From Gemmatimonadales bacterium (lineage in GTDB: Bacteria; Gemmatimonadota; Gemmatimonadetes; Gemmatimonadales; GWC2-71-9), in NCBI GenBank assembly GCA_036002045.1, contig DASYTT010000095.1, positions 3,061 through 67,060 on the forward strand: DNA of 64,000 bases, given 5' to 3'. A program made the translations under genes and the position numbers. This document shows positions 16,538 to 38,313 of this stretch, in pieces. How positions within the stretch are numbered: the first letter of the stretch is position 1; each line of letters starts with the position of its first letter. The notes under the pieces are model-generated. The model saw only the letters and a list, made by a program, of their open reading frames with translations. It was not told the DNA's origin and ran no database searches.

Positions 16538-16948
16538 TTGCGTTTCGTGACTTCGGCGGAGATGCAGGTCGAGCCCTCGCCCTGGGGGCCGCACGAATGG
16601 CTCTGCCGGCCCGGGCTCACGGAGGCCGAGGGACTCTTGCTCGTCCGGGTCCGGATGCCGGTCGGGCGGGCGCATCAGTTCCACCGACACCCGGCGCTCG
16701 AGGAAATCATCTACGTGATCTCCGGCACAGCCGAGCAGTGGGTCGACCGGGAGCGGCGGATGTTGCGCGCGGGGGAGTCGGCCCACATACCCCGCGATGT
16801 GGTGCACGGCACCTACAATGCCGGGGATGCTCCCCTGGTGTTTCTCGCCATTCTCTCGCCGGCCAGCTTCAATGGCCCCGCGATCATCGACGTCCATACC
16901 GAGGAGCCCTGGCGCTCGCTCAAGGCGCCGTTGCGCTTCCCCGAGTGA
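16538..16948 (+). CDS. cupin-domain protein
   Basis: Cupin motifs HQFHRHPALEEIIYVISGTAE and AHIPRDVVHGTYN. TTG start; an in-frame ATG at 16562 is possible. Stop TGA overlaps the next GTG. Confidence 0.75.
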   Translation: MRFVTSAEMQVEPSPWGPHEWLCRPGLTEAEGLLLVRVRMPVGRAHQFHRHPALEEIIYVISGTAEQWVDRERRMLRAGESAHIPRDVVHGTYNAGDAPLVFLAILSPASFNGPAIIDVHTEEPWRSLKAPLRFPE

Positions 16949-18168
16949 AGCCCCGCATTCTCCTGCTCGGCAGCTTCGACACCAAGGGCGACGAATATGC
17001 CTTCGTGCGTTCGGTCATCGAGGCACGCGGGTTCAGTGTCCTTACGCTCGATCTGGGCGTGTTAGGCAGCGAAGGCGCGACGCCGTTCCCGGTCGACATC
17101 AGCGCGGAAGAGGTAGCCCGGGCCGGGGGCAGCTCGCTGGCAGATCTGAGGGCGCGCCGGGACCGCGGTCCGGCAGTGGAAGCGATGCTGGCCGGCGCCC
17201 GGGTGCTCACGCGGGAGCTCTACGCCGCGCGGCGCTTCGGCGGCGTGCTCGGACTGGGGGGAGGGGGTGGAACGACGATGATCACCGCCGCCATGCGCGA
17301 GCTGCCGGTGGGAGTGCCCAAGCTCATGGTTTCGACCATGGCGTCGGGGGACACGGCGCCCTATGTCGACGTCAAGGACATCACCATGATGTATTCCGTG
17401 GGCGACATCGCCGGGCTCAATCCGCTCTCGCGACGGATCCTGGAAAATGCCGCAGGCGCGATCTGCGGGATGCTGGAGCCGCATCCGTCACTTGCGGCCG
17501 CAACGACCCGCCCCCTGATTGCCGCGACGATGTTCGGGGTCACCACCCCCTGCGTCACCGCAGCGCGCAAGCGGCTCGAGGCGGCGGGATACGACGTGCT
17601 GGTGTTTCACGCAACGGGCTCAGGCGGGCGTGCCATGGAGGGGCTGATCGATGACGGATATTTCGTCGGAGTGCTCGACGTTACGACGACCGAATGGTGC
17701 GATGAAGTGGTGGGCGGCGCGCTGAGCGCGGGCCCCGATCGGCTGTCGGCGGCCGGGCGCAAGGGTTTGCCGCAAGTCGTGTCTGCGGGGGCGCTCGACA
17801 TGGTCAATTTTGGCCCCGCCGACACGGTGCCCGAAAGATTCCGGGGGCGGACGCTGTACCGGCACAATCCGACGGTGACGCTGCTGCGAACCTCTTTGGA
17901 GGAGTGTCGCGAGATCGGCCGGCGCATCGGAGAACAATTGAGCCGGGCCACGGGTCCGGTCACCCTCCTGCTTCCTCTCAAGGGTGTGAGTATGCTCGAT
18001 GCACCGGGCCAGCCGTTCCACGACCCGGAGGCGGACCGGACACTGGTCGAATCCCTGCGGCGCCATGCCGGACCCAACGTGCAGGTACGGGAGCTGGACC
18101 TGCACATCAACGATGAAGAGTTCGCCCACGCGCTGGCGGACGAGCTCTTACACCAGCTGGGGAGCTGA
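16945..18168 (+). CDS. UPF0261 / Tm-1-like ATP-binding protein (PF06792-type)
   Basis: GTG 16945 (GTGA overlap). N-terminus PRILLLGSFDTKGDEYAFVRSVIEARGFSVLTLDLGVLG is typical of UPF0261. About 407 aa. The ORF-track extension 16528-16944 overlaps the cupin gene and was not used. Confidence 0.8.
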   Translation: MKPRILLLGSFDTKGDEYAFVRSVIEARGFSVLTLDLGVLGSEGATPFPVDISAEEVARAGGSSLADLRARRDRGPAVEAMLAGARVLTRELYAARRFGGVLGLGGGGGTTMITAAMRELPVGVPKLMVSTMASGDTAPYVDVKDITMMYSVGDIAGLNPLSRRILENAAGAICGMLEPHPSLAAATTRPLIAATMFGVTTPCVTAARKRLEAAGYDVLVFHATGSGGRAMEGLIDDGYFVGVLDVTTTEWCDEVVGGALSAGPDRLSAAGRKGLPQVVSAGALDMVNFGPADTVPERFRGRTLYRHNPTVTLLRTSLEECREIGRRIGEQLSRATGPVTLLLPLKGVSMLDAPGQPFHDPEADRTLVESLRRHAGPNVQVRELDLHINDEEFAHALADELLHQLGS

Positions 18169-18174
18169 CTCAGG

Positions 18175-19014
18175 ATGCCCTTCATCGCGCGCGAGGAATC
18201 CCTCCACCGCCTCCGCTCCCAAGTGGCCGCGGGCTCTCCTCTCATCGGCGCGGGGGCGGGGACCGGCATCTCGGCCAAGTTCGCCGAGCGCGGTGGAGTG
18301 GACCTGATTGTCATCTACAACTCCGGACGCTACCGAATGGCGGGGCGAGGCAGCGCTGCGGGCATGATGCCGTACGGCGACGCAAACGCCATCGTGGTGG
18401 ACATGGCGCGCGAGGTGCTGCCGATCGTGAAGGACACGCCCGTGCTGGCGGGCGTTTGCGGCACCGACCCATTCCGGCTAATGCGGGTGTTCCTCCCGCA
18501 GCTTCGGGACATGGGGTTCGATGGGGTGCAAAACTTTCCCACGGTAGGGCTGATCGACGGGCAGTTTCGTCAGATTCTCGAAGAGACCGGAATGAGTCTC
18601 CAGCTCGAGGTGGAGATGATCGCCCAAGCGCATGAGCTCGGCATGCTCACCTGTCCCTACGTATTCGACGCCGCCACGGCCACCGCATTCGCCCGGGCCG
18701 GCGCGGATGTCATCGTCGCCCACGTGAATACCACGGTCGCGGGCTCAATCGGCGTCAAGACAGCGGCACTGTCCCTCGATGCCGCCGTGTTGCGCGTGCA
18801 GGAGATGCACGATGCGGCCAAGGCGGTCAATCCGGAGACGATCGTGCTGTGCCACGGCGGTCCCCTCGCCGAGCCGAAGGATGTGCAATACCTGCTGGAG
18901 CGCACGACCGGTGTAGCGGGATTCTTCGGGGCCTCGAGCATCGAGCGACTGGCAACGGAGCGCGCCATCGAGGAGCAGGCGAGGGCGTTCAAATCGCTGC
19001 GGCTTCCGAGGTGA
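18175..19014 (+). CDS. phosphoenolpyruvate-hydrolase-like TIM-barrel protein (PF09370-type; Tm-1 C-terminal half)
   Basis: LIGAGAGTGISAKFAERGGVDLIVIYNSGRYRMAGRGSAAGMMPYGDAN is the family hallmark. Always paired with UPF0261. Confidence 0.8.
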   Translation: MPFIAREESLHRLRSQVAAGSPLIGAGAGTGISAKFAERGGVDLIVIYNSGRYRMAGRGSAAGMMPYGDANAIVVDMAREVLPIVKDTPVLAGVCGTDPFRLMRVFLPQLRDMGFDGVQNFPTVGLIDGQFRQILEETGMSLQLEVEMIAQAHELGMLTCPYVFDAATATAFARAGADVIVAHVNTTVAGSIGVKTAALSLDAAVLRVQEMHDAAKAVNPETIVLCHGGPLAEPKDVQYLLERTTGVAGFFGASSIERLATERAIEEQARAFKSLRLPR

Positions 19015-21074
19015 AGTGGACACTGCTGGTCGCGGCGCTGGCCCAGACGAGCGGAGCGCGGGCCCAGGACACGCTCCGGCCGCGGTTGCTGGACCCCGTG
19101 GTCGCCACCGCAGAGCGTACCCGCGGCAGCGTCAGCTCCTCGATGGCGGCGGTGACGCGACTCGCCGCCGAGGAGCTCGCACGGTATCCCCGAGCCACGC
19201 TCGCGGATCTGCTCCGCCTGGCGCCGGGTTTCAGCACGGTGGACTTCGACGGCCTCGGCTTCGATCCGCAGCTCATGGTGCGCGGGTTTTATGGCGGTGG
19301 TGAGGCGGAATACGTCATCGTCCAGGTCGACGGGCACCCGGTAAATCAGCTGCAGACGGGCCTAGTTGCCTGGGATGTATTGCCTCCACTTGCCGCCATC
19401 GAGGCGATCGAAGTCGTGCGGGGAGGCGCCTCATCGCTGTATGGCGATGCCGCGATCGGGGGAATAATCAACATCATTACCCGCCGCTCCGAGCTGGGAC
19501 GCCAGGCAGCGCGGCTCAGCTGGGAAGGGAGCGGAGGGAGCTTCGGCACCTGGAGCGCCGCCGCCGGCCTTGCGGGGCGCGCCGGAAGGCAGTCCCTGTC
19601 GCTTGCCGGCGGCGTCGACCGCACTCAAGGATTCCGGGATCACGCTGAGCGCACCGCTGCCCGGGCAAACGCCGGAATGACGCTGACCGAAGGCTCGAGT
19701 GGGTGGGTCGGCGTGGCGGTCCGGTCGCATTGGCGGGATAACGATGATCCGGGACCATTGCGAGAGAGCCTTCTGCAGCAGGATCGGAGTGGCTCGGATC
19801 CGCTCTTCCGCTTCGACCACAGCAGCGACAAAGGCGGCGTGCTGGCGCTGCAGGGAAGCCGATCCCTTGCGGGGCGCACCCAGCTCGTCGGCTCCGCGAG
19901 CGCAGAGCTCCGAAGGGTGGACGCGATCCGCACCTTGGCCCTGGCACCCGGGTTTGGCGACACCAAGGAACGACTCGCGGGCACCGATCGCGGTGCGCTG
20001 AGCCTGCAGCTGGAAAGTGGCGACGCTCCGCTCCCGCACACCGATCGACTGATCGTGGGAATCGAGGCCGCCCGGGGCGGGCTCAATTCTCGCTACTTTC
20101 GCTTTTCCGACGGCGAGCGCGGCCCGCTCGACACCCAGGGAAGCAGCACCCGGACCAGCGGCGCGATCTACGCGGAGCTGCTCGGGCGACCCTTCGACGC
20201 CTTGCGGCTGACCCTCGGCGCGAGGCTGGACCTGCTGGACGACAGCTTTGAGCCCAGGATTCCCAGCGGACAGGCTCGCGAGTCTGCGAGTCACACGGCA
20301 TTCAGTCCGAAGGCGGGGCTCAACCTCCGTTATCTGAACCGCGCCACAAGCGCCGGCAATCTCTATCTTGCCATCGGCCGTTCTTTCAAGGCGGCGACGC
20401 TGGATCAGCTCTATGATCAGCGCAGCATCCCAATCCCTTTCCCGCCGTTTGCCGTGACGACGTCCAACCCCGAGTTGCGACCGCAATCCGGCAGCAGTGT
20501 CGAGCTGGGGGCCTATCAATCCGCGGAGCTGGCGCGCGGGGTGCGCGCGACAGCCTCGCTGAGCAGCTATCAGATGAATATGAAGGACGAGCTGGACTTC
20601 GATATCACGTCGTTCCGTTACGTGAACCTTGGCCGCAGCAGGCATCGCGGAATCGAGGCCGGCCTGCACGTCGGCGGGAGTGGCGCCTCGGGGTTCGCGA
20701 ACTACACACTGCAGTCGGCCATCTCGCGGAGCGGCAACTATTCCGGCCAGCGGCTCAAGGCGATCCCGCGCCACTCGGTGACGGCGGGTCTATCGCTGCG
20801 ACCCGGCTCGCTGCTCGAGGCAACCATGGTGGCGACCCACGTGCACGACATTTTTCTCGACGACGCAAACTCGGTCCGCTTGCCGAATTACTCTCGCGTG
20901 GACGCCCAGCTCGTGCTCCGGGTGCGAGGAATCGGCGTGCTGCTCTCGGTACGCAATCTCCTGGGGTCCGAATACAGCACCACCGGGTTTCTGGATCCGA
21001 GCGGATCGGGAGAGGCGTACCTCTATCCGGCCGCGGGGCAGGTGATTGTGCTGGGTGTCCGGGGAGGCTGGTAG
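19011..21074 (+). CDS. TonB-dependent outer-membrane receptor
   Basis: GTG 19011 (GTGA overlap), giving signal peptide VKWTLLVAALAQTSGARA-QD. Plug domain (IEVVRGGASSLYGDAAIGGIINIITR), a long beta-barrel, and a C-terminal aromatic residue (..VRGGW). Confidence 0.85.
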   Translation: MKWTLLVAALAQTSGARAQDTLRPRLLDPVVATAERTRGSVSSSMAAVTRLAAEELARYPRATLADLLRLAPGFSTVDFDGLGFDPQLMVRGFYGGGEAEYVIVQVDGHPVNQLQTGLVAWDVLPPLAAIEAIEVVRGGASSLYGDAAIGGIINIITRRSELGRQAARLSWEGSGGSFGTWSAAAGLAGRAGRQSLSLAGGVDRTQGFRDHAERTAARANAGMTLTEGSSGWVGVAVRSHWRDNDDPGPLRESLLQQDRSGSDPLFRFDHSSDKGGVLALQGSRSLAGRTQLVGSASAELRRVDAIRTLALAPGFGDTKERLAGTDRGALSLQLESGDAPLPHTDRLIVGIEAARGGLNSRYFRFSDGERGPLDTQGSSTRTSGAIYAELLGRPFDALRLTLGARLDLLDDSFEPRIPSGQARESASHTAFSPKAGLNLRYLNRATSAGNLYLAIGRSFKAATLDQLYDQRSIPIPFPPFAVTTSNPELRPQSGSSVELGAYQSAELARGVRATASLSSYQMNMKDELDFDITSFRYVNLGRSRHRGIEAGLHVGGSGASGFANYTLQSAISRSGNYSGQRLKAIPRHSVTAGLSLRPGSLLEATMVATHVHDIFLDDANSVRLPNYSRVDAQLVLRVRGIGVLLSVRNLLGSEYSTTGFLDPSGSGEAYLYPAAGQVIVLGVRGGW

Positions 21075-21078
21075 CTCC

Positions 21079-21489
21079 GTGGATGAGAAGAAGCTGGGTC
21101 GGACGCTGTGGATCATTGCGAATGCTGTGATGTGCCTTGCGTTTCTTTTCTCGACCGTGGTACAACTGAACGATCCGGACCCCATCCGCTGGATGGGGGT
21201 GTATGGCGCGGCCACCGTCGTCTGTGGGCTCGAGCTCAGGCGAGGGGTGCGAGCATGGATTCCAGCTCTGCTGGCGGTGCTTGCGCTGACCTGGGCAGCC
21301 ACCATTGCACCGCGGGTGATCGGCAAGGTGGGCTTCACCGAGATGTTCGCCGAGTTCGAGATGCGGAATGCCGGTGTCGAAGAGGCGCGGGAAATGTACG
21401 GGCTTTTGTTCGTTGCGATCTGGATGGGGGTGATAGCGGCATTCGAACGCCGGAGCACAAGACGTAGAGCTGACGAGGTGCTGTGCTGA
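21079..21489 (+). CDS. small integral membrane protein, TMEM220-like (PF15071-type)
   Basis: GTG 21079 lies 11 nt after GGAGG. Has 4 hydrophobic helices and an NDPDPIRW motif typical of the family. Confidence 0.6.
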   Translation: MDEKKLGRTLWIIANAVMCLAFLFSTVVQLNDPDPIRWMGVYGAATVVCGLELRRGVRAWIPALLAVLALTWAATIAPRVIGKVGFTEMFAEFEMRNAGVEEAREMYGLLFVAIWMGVIAAFERRSTRRRADEVLC

Positions 21490-30691: not shown

Positions 30692-31254
30692 GGTCCGACC
30701 TCCCGCAACAGCGCGTCGACCTGCGCCAGGAGCAGGTCCGTAGCGGACTGGACCGAGCGCCCCGTGGTGTCGAGCACCGGAATCCCCAGCGCATCGGCTT
30801 GTCCGCGGAGGTAGGCCGCCCAGGCATCCATTCGGCTGCCCGACAGCTCGGGCTGCGCAGGGGACCTGGTCAGCCGGGCGCGGCGATCCGCCGGGCTGCA
30901 ATCCACCAGCAGAATGCGGCCGAGCCGAATCCCGGACGACTCGAATGCGGCGACCGCAAAGCTCGGACGGGTTTGCGCGTCCAGCACCGCGAGCCGGGCC
31001 CCCTCCGGATTGGCTGCCAGGCGTTGCATCCATTGCTCCGTCATCACCCGCTGCCAGGCCTCGGGTCCCCCGAATTGCAACGTCATCAGCTCGACGGAGG
31101 GAACCCCGATGCTGTCGAAGTAATAACAGAGGACACCCGGGCGGGACGTTTCGATCGCCTTGACCAGCGTCGTTTTTCCTGCCCCGGAAGCCCCCGTGAC
31201 GACGAGCACGGCTGGTGGTGAAACAATGCGGCGTTGCTGGGCGGCACCCGTCAA
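30688..31254 (-). CDS. P-loop NTPase / small-molecule-kinase-like protein
   Basis: Walker A VTGASGAGKTTL, Walker B-like ILLVDC, followed by RRARLTR. The TTG 31254 start was chosen because it overlaps the cupredoxin stop (TTGA). The ORF-track start at 31308 would overlap 58 nt. Confidence 0.65.
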   Translation of the reverse strand: MTGAAQQRRIVSPPAVLVVTGASGAGKTTLVKAIETSRPGVLCYYFDSIGVPSVELMTLQFGGPEAWQRVMTEQWMQRLAANPEGARLAVLDAQTRPSFAVAAFESSGIRLGRILLVDCSPADRRARLTRSPAQPELSGSRMDAWAAYLRGQADALGIPVLDTTGRSVQSATDLLLAQVDALLREVGP

Positions 31255-31697
31255 TGCAGGGATCTCAAGGTTCCGAGCATTGAGTTCGCGTGGCCTGACA
31301 TCAGGCAAACGTAGGTGTAGCTACCGGGTGGAGGAACCGTGAAGGTGACTTCGACCGTCTGGCCCGGTGAGGCGAGCGGGGTCCAGGCAATCAGCTTGGC
31401 CTTAAGCGCGGCCGGGACATAATCGCCTCCCTGTTGCATTGCGGCGCTCGCGAGCGCGTCGATATCGGCCTCATTGCGTACCAGCACGAAGTTATGAGGC
31501 AACGTCCCGGCGTTGACGAAGCGTAGACGAACCTGCATCCCCTGCTTGAGCGCGATCGTGGGAGGGTCGAACTCCAGCGTGCTGCTGCTCGCGCGGACGG
31601 TGATGGTCGTGTCGACGGGCAGAGGGGCAGAGGGGGGGAAGGGCAGAGAGCTGAGGGATCCTCCCAGGAGTGAGGCGATCGCCACGAGCGGGATCAT
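31251..31697 (-). CDS. azurin-type blue-copper (cupredoxin) protein, secreted
   Basis: Signal peptide MIPLVAIASLLGGSLS. Type-1 Cu ligand pattern: LPHNFVL (His), then YVC-LMSG-H-ANS-M, with the Cys-x4-His-x3-Met spacing seen in azurin. ATG 31697 overlaps the upstream stop (ATGA). Confidence 0.8.
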   Translation of the reverse strand: MIPLVAIASLLGGSLSSLPFPPSAPLPVDTTITVRASSSTLEFDPPTIALKQGMQVRLRFVNAGTLPHNFVLVRNEADIDALASAAMQQGGDYVPAALKAKLIAWTPLASPGQTVEVTFTVPPPGSYTYVCLMSGHANSMLGTLRSLH

Positions 31698-34600
31698 GGC
31701 TGCTTGAATACCTCGGGCAGCGTCCAGCGGGCGGCGACCTTGGCAAATGCAGCAGTCAGCTCCGGCGAGGCATCGCGCGCCGAGGCAGCCAGTGCCGCGC
31801 GCTGCTCGACGCTGAGCTCGGGCGGGCTTTCCTGGGGCCAACCCTCCGCGATCCCGGTCAAGAGCGCGACCGCGAGCTGGGCGGTGGCTTGCGGGACGGC
31901 GCCGATCAGCTCGACGACCTTCGGGATGTCCTTCGGCGCGGCGTGATAGCGAGCGAGCTTGGCGACCGCTCGCTGCATTCCCGCGACTGCCAGCGAGTCG
32001 TTGTCGGGGACCCTGCGACGGACGAGCTCCCGGAGAAAATCCGGGCCCTGTTTGGCCCCGGCGATGGCCACCGCGTCCGGCAGCCAGGCATCCCGCGCAT
32101 TGGCAGGAAACATGATGATGTCCGCGATGCCCGCTGCCGCTCGCGGCGAGGCCGGCAGCTCCGACAGCGCCAGTAGCGCCTCGAGCCGCACGTGGGCATC
32201 GGCATCCTGGAGGATACCGGTCGGTACCGTGTACTCCACGGGCCAGGGGGAGCTGCGATCGGGAAGGATCCCTGCGGCAAAGATGGCGTCGGCGAGCTCT
32301 TGATCACGCGGCAACAGCATGAGCGCGGCCCGGCGGAGCGAAGCCGCGGGATGGTAGAGTGCGTTGCGCGCGGCCCTCAGCGCATCCCCCGGCTGACCCA
32401 GCGCACCGAGTCCCTGTAGCGTCCAGAGCGCGTGGAGCGCGGAGGGATTGAGGCCCTGCGCATCGACGGTCTGATCGTTGACGAGCTCGATCAGGGCCGG
32501 CACCACGTCCTGCTTGCCGCGCTCCACCAGCAGGCGTTGGGCTGTGAGGCGCCAGAACAGGTTGTCGTTCTTGAGGGCCCGGACCAGCTGCGGCGGCGAG
32601 GCCTTGTCGAGCCTCAGTGGCGGCGCGGCGCCGACGCTGTCGTAGGCGATCCGGTAGATCCGGCCGTGAAGCCGGTCGCGGTTGGGGGTCTCGTAGGCGT
32701 TGCCGGGACCGGTCTCGCAACAGCCCTGGAGATCCTTCGGCGTCGGGTTGTGCTGCGCGACCAGCGTGTAGAAGTCGGAAACCCAAAGGGCGCCGTCGGG
32801 CCCGACCTTTACCTGAACGGGCGCGGCCCAGGCATCCCGGCTGGCCAGGAAGCTCCAGCGATTCTTCGCGCGGAACGCCGATCCATTGTCGTTGAGCTCG
32901 AACATCCCGATAAGGTGGGCGGTCGGCTCGGCGACGAAGGCCACGCGATTCCAGTATTCCTTGGGGAACGCCCGCGCCGTGTAGACCTCGTGGGCCGCGC
33001 CCGCCGTGTAGCGACCGAACTGATCTACCTGCAGAATGTCGCGAACGGGGAAGACATCGAGCCGATCGGCGATATCGGGCAGCACGGTGTCGCGCGCGCC
33101 CATCGCACGATAGTAGCGGAGTGGAATGTGCACGAAGTTCGAGGGGCGGCTGTTTGCCGTGGAGCCGAAGACGAAATTGTCCTCCGTGAAGGCGACGCCC
33201 CAGGTGTTGTTGCTGGTGCGCGCGACGTATTCCAGCTCGGAGCCGTCACCCGGAAACCGGAAGTAGCCGGACCCGAACTGCCCGCGCGCGTAGGTGGTCT
33301 TCCCTACCGTGCCACGGAAGCCGTTGTATCCGAGCGAGCCCCAGACCTGATTATCGAAACCGTAGCGCAGGTTGCTGATGGTTCCGTGAGTATCACCGCG
33401 GGGGAATCCAGTAAAGAGGATCTGCTTCTCGTCGGCCTTGTCGTCCCCATTGGTGTCCTTGAAAAAGAGCATGTGCGGTGCCTGGCCTACGACGAGGCCG
33501 CCGTTCGCGAACGCGAGCGAAGTCGCCAGGTTGAGCCCCTCGGCAAAGACCGTCACCTTGTCGGCGACCCCATCGTTGTTGCTGTCCTGCAGGATGAGAA
33601 TCCGGTCGTGGCCCGGTACGCTGTCGGGAAGGACGACGTTGGGATAGTCGTTGGTCTCCACCGCCCACATCCGGCCGCGAGCATCCCAGGTGAAATCGAT
33701 GATGTTCCCGATCAACGGCTCGAACGCGAAAGGGGTGACGCTGAAGCGTGGCCGCAGCGTCATCAACAAGAGCGACTCGCGAGTGGGCAGCGCGTCCGGC
33801 GCCCGGGTGACGGCGGTATCCAGCGTGTTCCACGGAGCCGGCGGCCGCTTATAGGTTGGCAGCGGGACCGGCAGGTCGAGCATTTTGGGGGCCGGGCTCG
33901 CGGCGACGCGCGTCAAAGCGGCGTCGCCGGCCGTCCAGCGAATCCCCCGCTCTACCAGCCGCTGGAAGCCCGGGTTACCCCAGGTGCGCTGGTCGTGACC
34001 CCAGGCGGTGTAGAACACCCTGCCCTTCCCATAGGTGCGAACCCAGGTCCAGGGCTCATCGTGGCCGTTTTCCCGCCGTACTTCGAGCACGGTGCGATTG
34101 ACCGGGTTGTGCTTGGTGTGCACGTAGGTCTCATCCCAGCTGGTGAACGTCGGCACGTCCCTGATCGCGGGGTGATCGGGCGTAACCCGCACGACGCTGA
34201 ACGTATCGGTCCCGTGACTCTTGAAAGCGGCACCGACCAGCCGGATGAACTCTTCGGAATTCTGGAAGGAAGCCGAGGCGCAATGCAGCACCACCAGACC
34301 GCCTCCGTCTCCGACGAACGCGAGCAGCGCCGCGAGCTGCGGCTTGGAGATCGTGAGGTGATTGTTGTAGAGCATGACCACCTGGTAACGATTGAGCTCG
34401 GCGTCGTTCAGATCCTCGCGGTCGTCGGTGTAGAAGAGGTCGATACCATTCTGGGCCAGAATGGGCAGCAGCTCCTTGGCGCGCTGGGTGGGCCGATGAT
34501 GACCATTGTCGCCGAGGAACAAGACGGCCAGGCGGGCAACCGGGCGGCGGTTGGGCTGCTGGGCGATTAGGCGGGTCTGCGCATGAGCGGAAGCCGGCAG

Positions 34601-36154
34601 CAGCAGGACGAGCAGTAAGGCGGCCGCTTTGGCCAGCCTGACGGCTCGATAGCCGCCTCGGCGGCGATCGGCGAGATACATCGCCCCAAAGACGAGAATG
34701 AGGACGAGCGCCGCTGGTGCGATGTACCGAAACGCGCGCTGGCCCCCTGCGGCTTCCGCGGGCTGCAGGATCGCGTTGGCCTCGGCCACCAGAGGCTCGC
34801 CGGGAATCGCGGTCGCCACGATGGCGCGAAGCGCGTTGGCGGTGGCGTCGTTGTGGAGGCTGCCGGTCGCCTGCTGCGTTGCGAGGGCGGCCCGGGTGGC
34901 GTTGAGCGCTTCCTCCACCTCATGGGGTCGGTAACCCAGGGTCGAGAGGTCAGGTGTGGCGGGCTCCAGGTATTCCGGGAACTTCTGTTCGACGCGCTGC
35001 AGCAGGTCGGCAGTCTGCGCGGGCAGCGAGGCCGCCAGGTAACGGTCCGCCAGCTTGCCCATGAGCGGGACGCCGACGGCGCCAGCCATGCCGAGGCCGA
35101 TTCCAGCGGTCAGCACGATGCCAAGCGAACCGGTGCGCGGCAGCTTCTCACTCACCGTGCCGACCATGGTGGGGAAAAAGAACGCAACGCCGCAGGCGAA
35201 GACGGTCGCGGCCGCGAAGGCACTCCAGGTGCCGGTGGCAAAGCTCAGGAGAAAAAGTCCCGAGCCGGTGAGCAGGGCGGCGATGAGTAACATGCCGGTC
35301 GGCTGCAATCGCTCGACGGCATGGCCGGCAAGCGAGCGCAACACCACCATCCAGCCGCTGATCCAGACGAGCACCAGGATGCCGTGCAAGCCAGCCGACT
35401 GGAGCACCGCGGGCACCCAGCGCATGGGCCCGAGCTCCATCGAGGTGGTGATCGCCATCATCGCGAGCATCAGCAGGAAGAACGGATTCGTCAGCGTGTA
35501 ACGGAACATGTCGCGAACCGGGATGCCGTGTTCGGCATTCTCCGTTTTGGGAAATCGCTGCGGAAGGAGTAGCGTCCCATAGACGAGAATCGGCAGGTAA
35601 ATCACTGCGAGCTGCCAGGGCCAATAAAAAAACTTGCCGCCCCAGGTCGCGAGCGCAAAGCCGGTGAGTCCGCCGAGCACGATACCGATTGGGAAGAACG
35701 CGTGAAACCAGTTCAGGTGTTTGGTCTTCGCGTCGGGGAAGAGAGCCGCGACGAGTGGGTTCCCGGTCACCTCAATCATCCCGTTCCCTGCAGCCAGGGT
35801 TGCCGCGCCCGCCATCAGCATCCAGAAGGCCGACGGGTCGCCCACCCGGGTAACCGCCAGAATCATCAGCGTGATGCCGGTGAGGTGGCCGGCAAAGGCG
35901 AGCCGAGCGCCGTTCTTCAATCCAAAGGCCTCGAGCAGCGGCCCCATCACGAGCAGCGAGATCGCCATGCCCCAGAGGGCGGCGCCGCCGATCAGGCCGA
36001 CCTGGTAGTTGGTGAGGATGAATTGCTGCTTGAGCGGCACCAGGATGTTGCTGACCAGCGCGAAGGAGGCGCCGGTCGGAATCAGCGCCAGGCAGATTCC
36101 AAAGAAGAGGCGGCGCCGGTGGATCGCGCCGGGCTGTGTGCCGGGCTCGGCCAT
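31694..36154 (-). CDS. fusion protein: 12-TM MFS permease + internal signal peptide/13th TM + ThuA-like domain + TIGR02604-type beta-propeller dehydrogenase domain + HEAT-like repeats (no cytochrome c)
   Basis: Single uninterrupted frame. Start taken as ATG 36154 (GGAG 10 nt upstream); the ORF-track GTG 36202 is an alternative. Domain motifs are listed in the findings. Confidence 0.75.
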   Translation of the reverse strand: MAEPGTQPGAIHRRRLFFGICLALIPTGASFALVSNILVPLKQQFILTNYQVGLIGGAALWGMAISLLVMGPLLEAFGLKNGARLAFAGHLTGITLMILAVTRVGDPSAFWMLMAGAATLAAGNGMIEVTGNPLVAALFPDAKTKHLNWFHAFFPIGIVLGGLTGFALATWGGKFFYWPWQLAVIYLPILVYGTLLLPQRFPKTENAEHGIPVRDMFRYTLTNPFFLLMLAMMAITTSMELGPMRWVPAVLQSAGLHGILVLVWISGWMVVLRSLAGHAVERLQPTGMLLIAALLTGSGLFLLSFATGTWSAFAAATVFACGVAFFFPTMVGTVSEKLPRTGSLGIVLTAGIGLGMAGAVGVPLMGKLADRYLAASLPAQTADLLQRVEQKFPEYLEPATPDLSTLGYRPHEVEEALNATRAALATQQATGSLHNDATANALRAIVATAIPGEPLVAEANAILQPAEAAGGQRAFRYIAPAALVLILVFGAMYLADRRRGGYRAVRLAKAAALLLVLLLPASAHAQTRLIAQQPNRRPVARLAVLFLGDNGHHRPTQRAKELLPILAQNGIDLFYTDDREDLNDAELNRYQVVMLYNNHLTISKPQLAALLAFVGDGGGLVVLHCASASFQNSEEFIRLVGAAFKSHGTDTFSVVRVTPDHPAIRDVPTFTSWDETYVHTKHNPVNRTVLEVRRENGHDEPWTWVRTYGKGRVFYTAWGHDQRTWGNPGFQRLVERGIRWTAGDAALTRVAASPAPKMLDLPVPLPTYKRPPAPWNTLDTAVTRAPDALPTRESLLLMTLRPRFSVTPFAFEPLIGNIIDFTWDARGRMWAVETNDYPNVVLPDSVPGHDRILILQDSNNDGVADKVTVFAEGLNLATSLAFANGGLVVGQAPHMLFFKDTNGDDKADEKQILFTGFPRGDTHGTISNLRYGFDNQVWGSLGYNGFRGTVGKTTYARGQFGSGYFRFPGDGSELEYVARTSNNTWGVAFTEDNFVFGSTANSRPSNFVHIPLRYYRAMGARDTVLPDIADRLDVFPVRDILQVDQFGRYTAGAAHEVYTARAFPKEYWNRVAFVAEPTAHLIGMFELNDNGSAFRAKNRWSFLASRDAWAAPVQVKVGPDGALWVSDFYTLVAQHNPTPKDLQGCCETGPGNAYETPNRDRLHGRIYRIAYDSVGAAPPLRLDKASPPQLVRALKNDNLFWRLTAQRLLVERGKQDVVPALIELVNDQTVDAQGLNPSALHALWTLQGLGALGQPGDALRAARNALYHPAASLRRAALMLLPRDQELADAIFAAGILPDRSSPWPVEYTVPTGILQDADAHVRLEALLALSELPASPRAAAGIADIIMFPANARDAWLPDAVAIAGAKQGPDFLRELVRRRVPDNDSLAVAGMQRAVAKLARYHAAPKDIPKVVELIGAVPQATAQLAVALLTGIAEGWPQESPPELSVEQRAALAASARDASPELTAAFAKVAARWTLPEVFKQP

Positions 36155-36195
36155 GTCAATTACTCCGGAGATGGACGGCTTCCGAGATAATAGCG

Positions 36196-38313
36196 CTAAC
36201 ACTCGATCGGCGCGCCTTCGGCCCGGCCGCGTAGCCGCACCCGGTATGCCGAGCCCGAGCGCGCGCGGGACCAGCGGAGCTGCCAGCGAGCCGGCTGCTG
36301 ACGGAGCGAGCGCAGATGGAGCTCGACGGAAGGATCATCATCCCACGCCACTACCACACTATCGTGAAGGATTTCGACGTTAGGGCTGGTGACGAAGGGA
36401 CTCCGGGCAGGCCAATCCTGGACCGCGCCGAGCCGGTAATCGACGTAGAGCGTATCACGGGAGCACCACGCCCGCTCCACCCGGGGCGACTCCATGCGAG
36501 CGGATTTCTCGGGATGCAGGAGAGCTCTCCGGGTGCCCGGAAAATACGAGATGGTCCGGGCGCTCGCCCTCGGCAGAGTATCTCCAGTAGACAGGAGCGT
36601 AGTCAACCCCGAGAATGCCCGGACGAACATCGCGGCCTCTCCAGGACCGTAGAGCGTCGAGCCTCCTTCGTAGCGCTGTGCAGCGTATTCCTCCGCGGTG
36701 GTCACGTAGCCGATATGTCCATTGCTGAGGCCCAGGATCAGCGCCGTGTCCACGGAAAGGCCAAGCCGGTGGGCCGCCGCGAGCATCGCCGCACGCAGAT
36801 GGCCTCCGGTCGTGGTGGTCACCTCGCCGGGAATTGTACCGATCACGCGGTTTCCGATCCGCAGCACCGAGAGCTGAGCGAACGAGGGAAGCTTCGGGCT
36901 CACGGCCACCCGGTTCGGAAGGCTGCCGAACAGGACATCGAACAGGAGATGCTTGGACCCATGACAGCCCTGGCCGTGTGGATTGGCGGCTCCCTGCTCG
37001 AAACTCAGGGAAAGGAGCCCGAGCAATCGCAAGCGATTCACCCGGGTTAGGGCATCGGTTGAGCCACCTATGATGGAGGCTCCGACGGCCGGCACCCGGC
37101 AAATTCGCAGGGAGTCCGCATCCTGGCGGAGCGCCAGGGTCGAAAAGGTGCGCCCCAGCGTGAGTCGCTCGTCGAGTGCGTCGCCCAAGCTGTCGAATAG
37201 CTTGATCGCCTCGTCTCCCAAGCCGTTGCCGATCCGTTCGACCGCGTCCCGGGCTGCGTGGATGCAAGCAGCGGCGTCAGGTGGTGGCAGCGGCTTCCAT
37301 TGCCAGAGGGGCTTCGTGAACGGTCCTTCGAGCAGTGGCCAGGTGGCGAGGACCGGCACGGCGCAGCGGCTCCGGCTCGGCCAGTCCGGGGAAACGTCTC
37401 CTTCGGCGCCATTCGCGAAGAGATGAAATGCGTTCGGCACAAAGGACCCGGACCGATCGATGTGGCGCTCGAGCCGGCGCTCTACCAAGCCATGGATGTC
37501 CGCATCGAGCAGCTCATTCTCAGAGGCGTTGCCGGTGCCGTGGATGGCGAAGTGGCTGAAGGCTCCGACGGGCCGGTAGCGTCCGGTGAGGGAATCACGC
37601 TGATCGATCCGCAACAGCGTGAGGGTCGGATCGATCAAGCGGTACTCGAGCGGAAGCGAATCAGGTGCATCGGACGGTGCCGTGGGCTCCGGGAGATTGC
37701 GAAGCAGCGCCGACATGCTCCGAATGCGCGTATAGCCCCAGACCCGCCGGCTGCCCCATGCCGCCTTCGCGTCACGCAGATCCAGCGTGGCCGCGTGAAC
37801 TGCAGCAGCAATCCGCCGTGCGAGCGAATCCAACAAGACAGTGTCAAATCCCACCACGGAGCTGCCCTGGTCGTTGAAGGCTCCGCCCTCGAAGTAATGG
37901 CTGGGCCCCGAATGGGTATGGGTGACGGAAATAATCAAACGGTCAACCCCAATCCCGTCGCTGGCGGCCGTCAACGCCGCCACGCGCCGATGTAACAGGG
38001 CCGAGCCCAGCGGCAAGTCGGCCACCACGAGTGCAAGACGATTGCCGGCAGAATCCTCGAGCAACATAACCCGCGCGTACAAGCGCAGGCGGTAGCCGTG
38101 CGCGCGGCGTCCTTCGGTGGCATTTCCAGCCAGTCCGACACCGGCGGGCGGGGTGATGTCCGCCCGGCCGAATCCGGCCCGCAGGCGGGCTGAGTTCCCG
38201 GGATGGGGCTCCGGGCGGGGGCTCAGCAGACCATCCAGGAGAAGAGCTCTCCCGCAGGAGGTCAGCAGCGCGCTCGACAGCGCCAGTAGGACGAGCTGTC
38301 GCGCGGGAGTCAT
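36196..38313 (-). CDS. neutral/alkaline (non-lysosomal) ceramidase family protein, lipoprotein
   Basis: ATG 38313 overlaps the upstream stop (ATGA). Lipobox LLTSCG. N-terminal domain hallmarks FGRADITPPAGVGLAG, YARVMLLED and IISVTHTHSGPSHYFEG. Confidence 0.85.
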   Translation of the reverse strand: MTPARQLVLLALSSALLTSCGRALLLDGLLSPRPEPHPGNSARLRAGFGRADITPPAGVGLAGNATEGRRAHGYRLRLYARVMLLEDSAGNRLALVVADLPLGSALLHRRVAALTAASDGIGVDRLIISVTHTHSGPSHYFEGGAFNDQGSSVVGFDTVLLDSLARRIAAAVHAATLDLRDAKAAWGSRRVWGYTRIRSMSALLRNLPEPTAPSDAPDSLPLEYRLIDPTLTLLRIDQRDSLTGRYRPVGAFSHFAIHGTGNASENELLDADIHGLVERRLERHIDRSGSFVPNAFHLFANGAEGDVSPDWPSRSRCAVPVLATWPLLEGPFTKPLWQWKPLPPPDAAACIHAARDAVERIGNGLGDEAIKLFDSLGDALDERLTLGRTFSTLALRQDADSLRICRVPAVGASIIGGSTDALTRVNRLRLLGLLSLSFEQGAANPHGQGCHGSKHLLFDVLFGSLPNRVAVSPKLPSFAQLSVLRIGNRVIGTIPGEVTTTTGGHLRAAMLAAAHRLGLSVDTALILGLSNGHIGYVTTAEEYAAQRYEGGSTLYGPGEAAMFVRAFSGLTTLLSTGDTLPRASARTISYFPGTRRALLHPEKSARMESPRVERAWCSRDTLYVDYRLGAVQDWPARSPFVTSPNVEILHDSVVVAWDDDPSVELHLRSLRQQPARWQLRWSRARSGSAYRVRLRGRAEGAPIEC

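Follow-up and report, generated by a model that had tools for sequence, protein, structure and literature searches.

One gene in the 64,000-nucleotide stretch of DNA analysed here (the window), from a soil bacterium of the Gemmatimonadales, encodes an MFS permease that continues in frame, through an internal signal peptide, into a ThuA/beta-propeller/HEAT module; the fusion is real and conserved, and unites what were two neighbouring genes of an operon. We consider it fairly probable that the product is a polyprotein of an MFS permease and a periplasmic dehydrogenase, resolved by signal peptidase, with electrons passing to a cupredoxin. The broader proposition, which we hold to be about evenly poised, is of a Gemmatimonadota polyprotein in which a permease and a 105-kDa oxidoreductase are cut apart by signal peptidase I (with Lgt and LspA in some lineages), fused and split forms interconvert, and a blue-copper protein replaces the cytochrome c domain. 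A literature search found no paper describing an MFS/signal peptide/ThuA/propeller/HEAT architecture, in keeping with an earlier reading made from the letters alone (the sequence-only reading), which had not recognised it as described.

Counted from a GTG, the maximal open reading frame spans 31694..36202 on the minus strand (1502 aa). Translation probably begins at the ATG at 36154, which has a GGAG 8 nt upstream and gives 1486 aa, the same uninterrupted frame of about 1486 codons that the sequence-only reading had reported. Profile searches upheld all of that reading's domain calls (MFS, ThuA, TIGR02604 and HEAT-like), and the parts of the chain are as follows.

31694..36154, minus strand: whole fusion CDS, 1486 codons plus the TGA stop at 31694-31696; MFS, internal signal peptide, ThuA, DUF7133 propeller and HEAT solenoid
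35057..36112, minus strand: MFS helices TM1-TM11 (residues 15-366), FucP-like; from hydropathy, AlphaFold2 and the MFS_1 profile
34739..35056, minus strand: conserved hydrophilic TM11-TM12 insert of ~105 aa (residues 367-472), predicted helical bundle, periplasmic by topology
34670..34738, minus strand: TM12 (residues 473 to about 495), containing Met492 (34681-34679)
34628..34669, minus strand: conserved cytoplasmic C-tail of the MFS, DRRRGGYRAVRLAK (residues 496-509), here acting as n-region of the predicted internal signal peptide
34580..34627, minus strand: h- and c-regions, AAALLLVLLLPASAHA (residues 510-525), with a predicted signal peptidase I site A525/Q526 (34580|34579)
33932..34522, minus strand: ThuA domain (residues 545-741), from the Pfam profile and Foldseek
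32642..33781, minus strand: DUF7133 / TIGR02604 beta-propeller (residues 792-1171), from profiles; fold nearest to soluble PQQ-dependent sugar dehydrogenases
31697..32599, minus strand: HEAT-like alpha-solenoid (residues ~1186-1486), the end of the chain; no cytochrome c domain

Hydropathy and AlphaFold2 agree with the earlier count of 12 MFS-like helices and a ~105-aa insert before the last of them, and place 11 helices, the insert, helix 12 and then a short 13th hydrophobic segment. Pfam MFS_1 matches residues 21-357 with 76.5 bits (gathering cutoff 33.4). The AlphaFold2 model of this part (pLDDT 83) is a twelve-helix, two-bundle fold with both termini cytoplasmic, and the topology puts 16 Lys and Arg residues inside and 4 outside. 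Foldseek matches the model to FucP, VMAT2, XylE and GLUT3 (TM-score 0.6-0.74 on target), with the Rv1410 homologue MHAS2168 also among the matches. FucP is the best PDB sequence match and among the best structural matches; the FucP equivalog model NCBIfam NF007524 scores only 21.5 bits and does not reach its cutoff of 427. On that score, the N-terminal half is only a distant relative of FucP. Its E128, which aligns with FucP E135, is invariant, as are many other residues. At N36, which aligns with FucP D46, Asn is likewise invariant, and since D46 is the proton-coupling residue of FucP, it is uncertain how the permease drives transport and in which direction. In another protein (P0115), a member of this MFS subfamily continues past TM12 into a Gfo/Idh/MocA enzyme, of a kind that is typically cytoplasmic, which fits the predicted topology.

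The remainder of the chain is matched by ThuA (PF06283; residues 545-741, 139.5 bits, gathering cutoff 33.4), DUF7133 (PF23500; residues 792-1171, 343.7 bits, cutoff 27) and TIGR02604 (residues 804-1172, 225.8 bits, cutoff 122.2). HEAT_2 is weak in Pfam, and a profile search returned alphaRep/HEAT matches to E 3e-14. In the AlphaFold2 model of the enzyme part (pLDDT 85), the ThuA domain matches 4e5v, 4jqs and 1t0b by Foldseek. The best matches of the propeller are 2ism, 7cgz, 3a9g, 7cdy, 3das and 6h7t (probability 1.0, TM-score 0.52-0.65 on target), the closest folds being PQQ-dependent glucose/aldose dehydrogenases, plus AA12. No PQQ sugar-dehydrogenase family was among the five families in the Pfam scan at E <= 0.01, and no relative of the propeller emerged from the PDB, whether by sequence or by profile. 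The modelled fold suggests that the periplasmic module may be a dehydrogenase. Although many Planctomycetota and Verrucomicrobia have ThuA-DUF7133-HEAT-cytochrome c proteins, we found no paper that assigns an activity or function to the ThuA-DUF7133(-HEAT-cytochrome c) family.

Between the two halves, the cytoplasmic C-tail of the MFS, DRRRGGYRAVRL, continues without a break into the h-region and cleavage region of a Sec-type signal peptide, and the junction reads MYLADRRRGGYRAVRLAKAAALLLVLLLPASAHA|QTR, as given by the sequence-only reading. Taking a signal peptide to have a basic n-region, an h-region of 7-15 residues and small residues at -3 and -1, the stretch divides into RRRGGYRAVRLAK, AAALLLVLLLP and ASAHA|Q. 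The textbook signal peptide claimed earlier stands as to its h-region and AXA site, whereas its supposed basic n-region is the MFS's own conserved tail. Among 109 fused homologues, [small]-x-[AGS]|Q was found at the junction in 79, where shuffled sequences predict 25, and a lipobox ([LVI][ASTG][GA]C, closing the h-region) in 14, where 3 are expected (LAGC, LSGC, LGAC, LSAC and others). The fused loci L010, L012, L014 and L019 have a lipobox as well; the window protein has the A-x-A site and no lipobox. No site fitting the simple cleavage pattern is seen in 16 of the 109, most of them still AxA-like. The median distance from MFS tail to cleavage site is 18 aa in the fused homologues, and Pro or Gly occupies a position from -4 to -8 in 72 of the 79 with an A-x-A-type site.

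MFS, ThuA and DUF7133 are combined in ~1480-1610 aa in 111 protein clusters (62-100% identical) drawn from NCBI, JGI, ENA and Logan assemblies, with junction sequences that differ between them; every cluster with a source name is from Gemmatimonadota. The fusion is common in metagenome bins of this phylum and is carried by ~20 GTDB species representatives (Gemmatimonadales, Longimicrobiales and unclassified Gemmatimonadota), either complete or cut by a contig end. All fusions fall within one 50%-identity cluster, and the top 150 MFS relatives include no other ~1500-aa architecture. In sister lineages the MFS and ThuA-enzyme genes adjoin without being fused, an adjacency that also supports the functional coupling of transporter and enzyme suggested by the sequence-only reading. 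There, the MFS stops 8-20 residues past the conserved tail DRRRGGYRAVRLE and the ThuA gene comes next (MFS ending 8-20 aa past GGYR.VRLE in L023, L025, L029, L030, L031, L034 and L087). The ThuA proteins of split loci have their own signal peptide (...AVLA|QAPP) or a lipobox (LIGAC, LLAAC; in L025 and L034). More than 100 stand-alone MFS proteins share the same C-terminal ending, stand-alone enzymes begin with classical signal peptides ending in A-x-A|QAP, and some fusions hold remnants of a fossil start and n-region. On these comparisons, the signal-peptide segment of the fusion has its origin in the signal peptide that begins an orthologue encoded by a gene of its own. In a rough tree the fused and split forms are interleaved, as expected if the host signal peptidase resolves the product, because loss or gain of the stop codon would then be nearly neutral and the two forms could interconvert.

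Directly downstream lies a small gene whose product may accept electrons from the enzyme; it is listed with an accessory set of genes that co-occur with the module. The sequence-only reading had not reported this gene, the split form or how common the fusion is in Gemmatimonadota bins.

31251..31697, minus strand: gene for a 148-aa cupredoxin with His and Cys-x4-His-x3-Met as type-1 copper ligands; putative electron acceptor
16538..21489, plus strand: accessory gene set co-occurring with the module; adjoins it in relatives, ~10 kb away here
16538-16948, plus strand: Cupin_2, accessory gene
~16945-18168, plus strand: UPF0261, accessory gene
18175-19014, plus strand: PEP_hydrolase-like, accessory gene
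to 21074 (start uncertain), plus strand: TonB-dependent receptor, accessory gene
21046-21489, plus strand: TMEM220, accessory gene

The ATG of the cupredoxin gene overlaps the TGA of the fusion as ATGA. Its product scores 42 bits with Pfam Copper-bind (cutoff 21.2), and H...C-x4-H-x3-M is kept in 19 of 19 aligned cupredoxins, including the fused domain of L085. At 25 of 29 informative loci, where the other neighbours differ, a cupredoxin lies directly downstream of the enzyme, as it also does in L087, L089 and L090; in L085 and L086 it is joined to the enzyme's C-terminus. The fusion protein itself has only 5 Cys and no C..CH motif anywhere in its 1486 aa, which agrees with the absence of CxxCH noted in the sequence-only reading. 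In contrast, CxxCH was present at residues ~1070-1420 in all 14 orthologues checked of the Planctomycetota/Verrucomicrobia/Haliangiales type. Planctomycetota and Verrucomicrobia orthologues (43-50% identical) have CxxCH and no cupredoxin, whereas the versions without CxxCH have a cupredoxin. A translationally coupled cupredoxin downstream, fused to the enzyme in two loci, would explain the absent heme domain, and it would stand in, as electron acceptor, for the cytochrome c domain that ends the Planctomycetota/Verrucomicrobia orthologues. Since the protein lacks a CxxCH domain, has a separate cupredoxin encoded downstream and carries an MFS in front, the NCBI product name 'PVC-type heme-binding CxxCH protein' is a misnomer, and it is the wrong name for the CxxCH-less fusion proteins generally. 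In L028, L037, L089 and L090 the enzyme and cupredoxin occur with no MFS nearby, which indicates that the coupling of transporter and enzyme is not obligatory.

According to the polyprotein model, the whole chain would be translated from the MFS start codon. Past TM12, the signal-peptide segment would insert N-in/C-out and the 960-residue module would be threaded into the periplasm; signal peptidase I would then cut after AHA525, with Lgt and LspA acting in the lipobox variants. This would yield a permease of 13 helices and, in the periplasm, an enzyme that is either free or held by a lipid anchor, a dehydrogenase that would hand electrons to the blue-copper protein of the translationally coupled downstream gene. 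More speculatively, the substrate could be a sugar or glycoside entering via the co-occurring TonB-dependent receptor, the MFS could import the oxidised product, and the cupin, UPF0261-type kinase and PEP-hydrolase-like proteins could process what is imported. Cleavage, which was among the alternatives offered by the sequence-only reading, is the best supported of three: the short h-region, A-x-A|Q in 79 of the 109 homologues and a lipobox in 14 argue for it, together with the split-form ancestry and low conservation of the segment. Resolution by signal peptidase is therefore favoured on sequence grounds over a permanent 13th anchor helix, which seems less likely, and over internal initiation, which seems unlikely.

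An uncleaved signal-anchor is a possible but clearly less probable reading, in which the ThuA/propeller/HEAT part stays tethered and its oxidised product is channelled into the permease. Retention of the fusion in ~20 species representatives would fit selection for tethering itself, the conserved periplasmic TM11-TM12 insert could dock the enzyme, and the strict cleavage pattern is unmatched in 16 of the 109 junctions. A parallel is offered by the TM11-TM12 extensions of Rv1410, proposed to guide substrate to the periplasmic lipoprotein LprG (PMC10576003). Against a plain anchor, the h-region spans just ~11-13 residues, no longer than in the signal peptides of split forms, and comes with a helix breaker as well as small residues at -3 and -1; the lipobox that 14 homologues have in this place would be purposeless; and fused and split forms interconvert readily. 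Moreover, the segment evolves like a signal peptide, its majority-residue conservation being 0.49 compared with 0.81-0.94 across the 12 MFS helices. AlphaFold2 draws the segment as a helix at low confidence (pLDDT ~55), which favours neither reading.

It is improbable that the MFS no longer transports anything relevant and acts chiefly as a leader that brings the large exported enzyme to the membrane during translation, or is decaying. Such a role would accommodate the large in-frame MFS deletions in relatives (L020 is without TM3-6, and in P0123, P0126 and P0112 little is left beyond TM1 and/or TM12), as well as the loci that have enzyme and cupredoxin with no MFS nearby. Yet conservation along the chain is highest in the 12 helices, here and in most homologues, and this, with the many invariant residues including E128, indicates purifying selection on transport.

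Internal initiation at ATG 34681, yielding a second product with the N-terminal signal peptide MYLADRRRGGYRAVRL..., is very unlikely. The sequence-only reading had proposed it and correctly located an in-frame ATG at 34679-34681, 34 codons ahead of the predicted cleavage site; Met492 lies within helix 12, not at its end as had been stated. Met occupies the position in 88 of 110 fused homologues, but also in 94 of 110 stand-alone MFS proteins with the GGY tail motif, to which nothing is fused, and it is thus best understood as a helix-12 residue. Furthermore, Met492 is absent in 20% of the fusions, 19 of 110 have no Met at all in residues 470-508, the upstream DNA tttggggcgATG contains no properly spaced Shine-Dalgarno, and the natural in-frame deletion variants keep the N-terminus, the upstream MFS start codon and the reading frame. 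Finally, an assembly indel or lost stop, raised in the sequence-only reading and conceivable given that the source is a metagenome-assembled genome and that relatives L024 and L039 show frameshifts, is rejected, since 111 independent clusters from four sources share the in-frame junction with differing sequences and GC3 is high (0.82) through the entire frame.

The more than 100 natural variants of the fusion, with their internal lipoboxes, in-frame deletions and fossil start codons, can be used to probe how Sec/YidC, signal peptidase I and Lgt/LspA deal with a signal peptide placed after 12 TM helices. If the model is true, the internal lipobox on which Lgt/LspA acts in some lineages is tethered to a polytopic protein, and the PVC-type 'heme-binding' dehydrogenase family can swap its cytochrome c domain for a blue-copper protein. 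The FucP-like permease, cupredoxin, TonB-dependent receptor and cupin/UPF0261-kinase/PEP-hydrolase-like set also provide leads to the substrate and pathway of an orphan family.

The individual parts resemble several known systems. The permease shares with the E. coli FucP (fucose/glucose/galactose:H+ symporter) family the glutamate that is essential in FucP (E135, here E128), and differs in having Asn in place of D46, the extra ~105-aa TM11-TM12 insert and the conserved GGYRAVRLE tail. The propeller fold is like that of the soluble PQQ glucose/aldose dehydrogenases, a family not detected by sequence profile. A periplasmic dehydrogenase that reduces a cupredoxin is known in methylamine dehydrogenase with amicyanin, which has another fold than a propeller, as do the ThuAB/LacABC glycoside 3-dehydrogenases. 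ThuAB and LacABC have been described as cytochrome c-dependent. Like such periplasmic dehydrogenase systems, the fusion locus encodes a ThuA domain and a putative dedicated small periplasmic electron carrier; unlike ThuAB, the fusion gene includes no Gfo/Idh/MocA ThuB partner. The C-terminal 960 residues are orthologous to the PVC-type ThuA/DUF7133/HEAT/cytochrome c proteins (43-50% identity over ThuA, propeller and HEAT), which are exported by a Sec signal peptide, as is predicted of the module here. In contrast to these proteins, the fusion has a whole MFS permease before the signal peptide, ends after HEAT with no CxxCH or further C-terminal domain, and has a separate downstream cupredoxin (fused in L085 and L086).

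For the arrangement as a whole, mycobacterial Rv1410 is an MFS protein that works with the periplasmic lipoprotein LprG of its own operon, and in which a periplasmic TM11-TM12 element is functional (PMC10576003). It resembles the fusion in combining an MFS that has a TM11-TM12 element with a periplasmic partner; however, Rv1410 is a 14-helix DHA2-type lipid exporter, its partner is a separate protein, and no redox enzyme is involved. Closer in layout is Bradyrhizobium japonicum FbcH, a cytochrome b-c1 precursor whose internal signal peptide is reportedly cleaved by signal peptidase, as is said to have been shown experimentally in 1991. To our knowledge, signal peptidase very rarely resolves a polyprotein in bacteria, FbcH being the textbook case. 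The families are unrelated (FbcH belongs to the bc1 complex), cleavage is reportedly experimental in FbcH and predicted here, and in some Gemmatimonadota lineages an internal lipobox replaces A-x-A. Nonetheless, both chains lead from a polytopic membrane part through an internal signal peptide to a periplasmic part of redox function, putative here, and the fusion has the FbcH-type layout of one ORF, a polytopic N-part, an internal signal peptide and a predicted periplasmic C-part.

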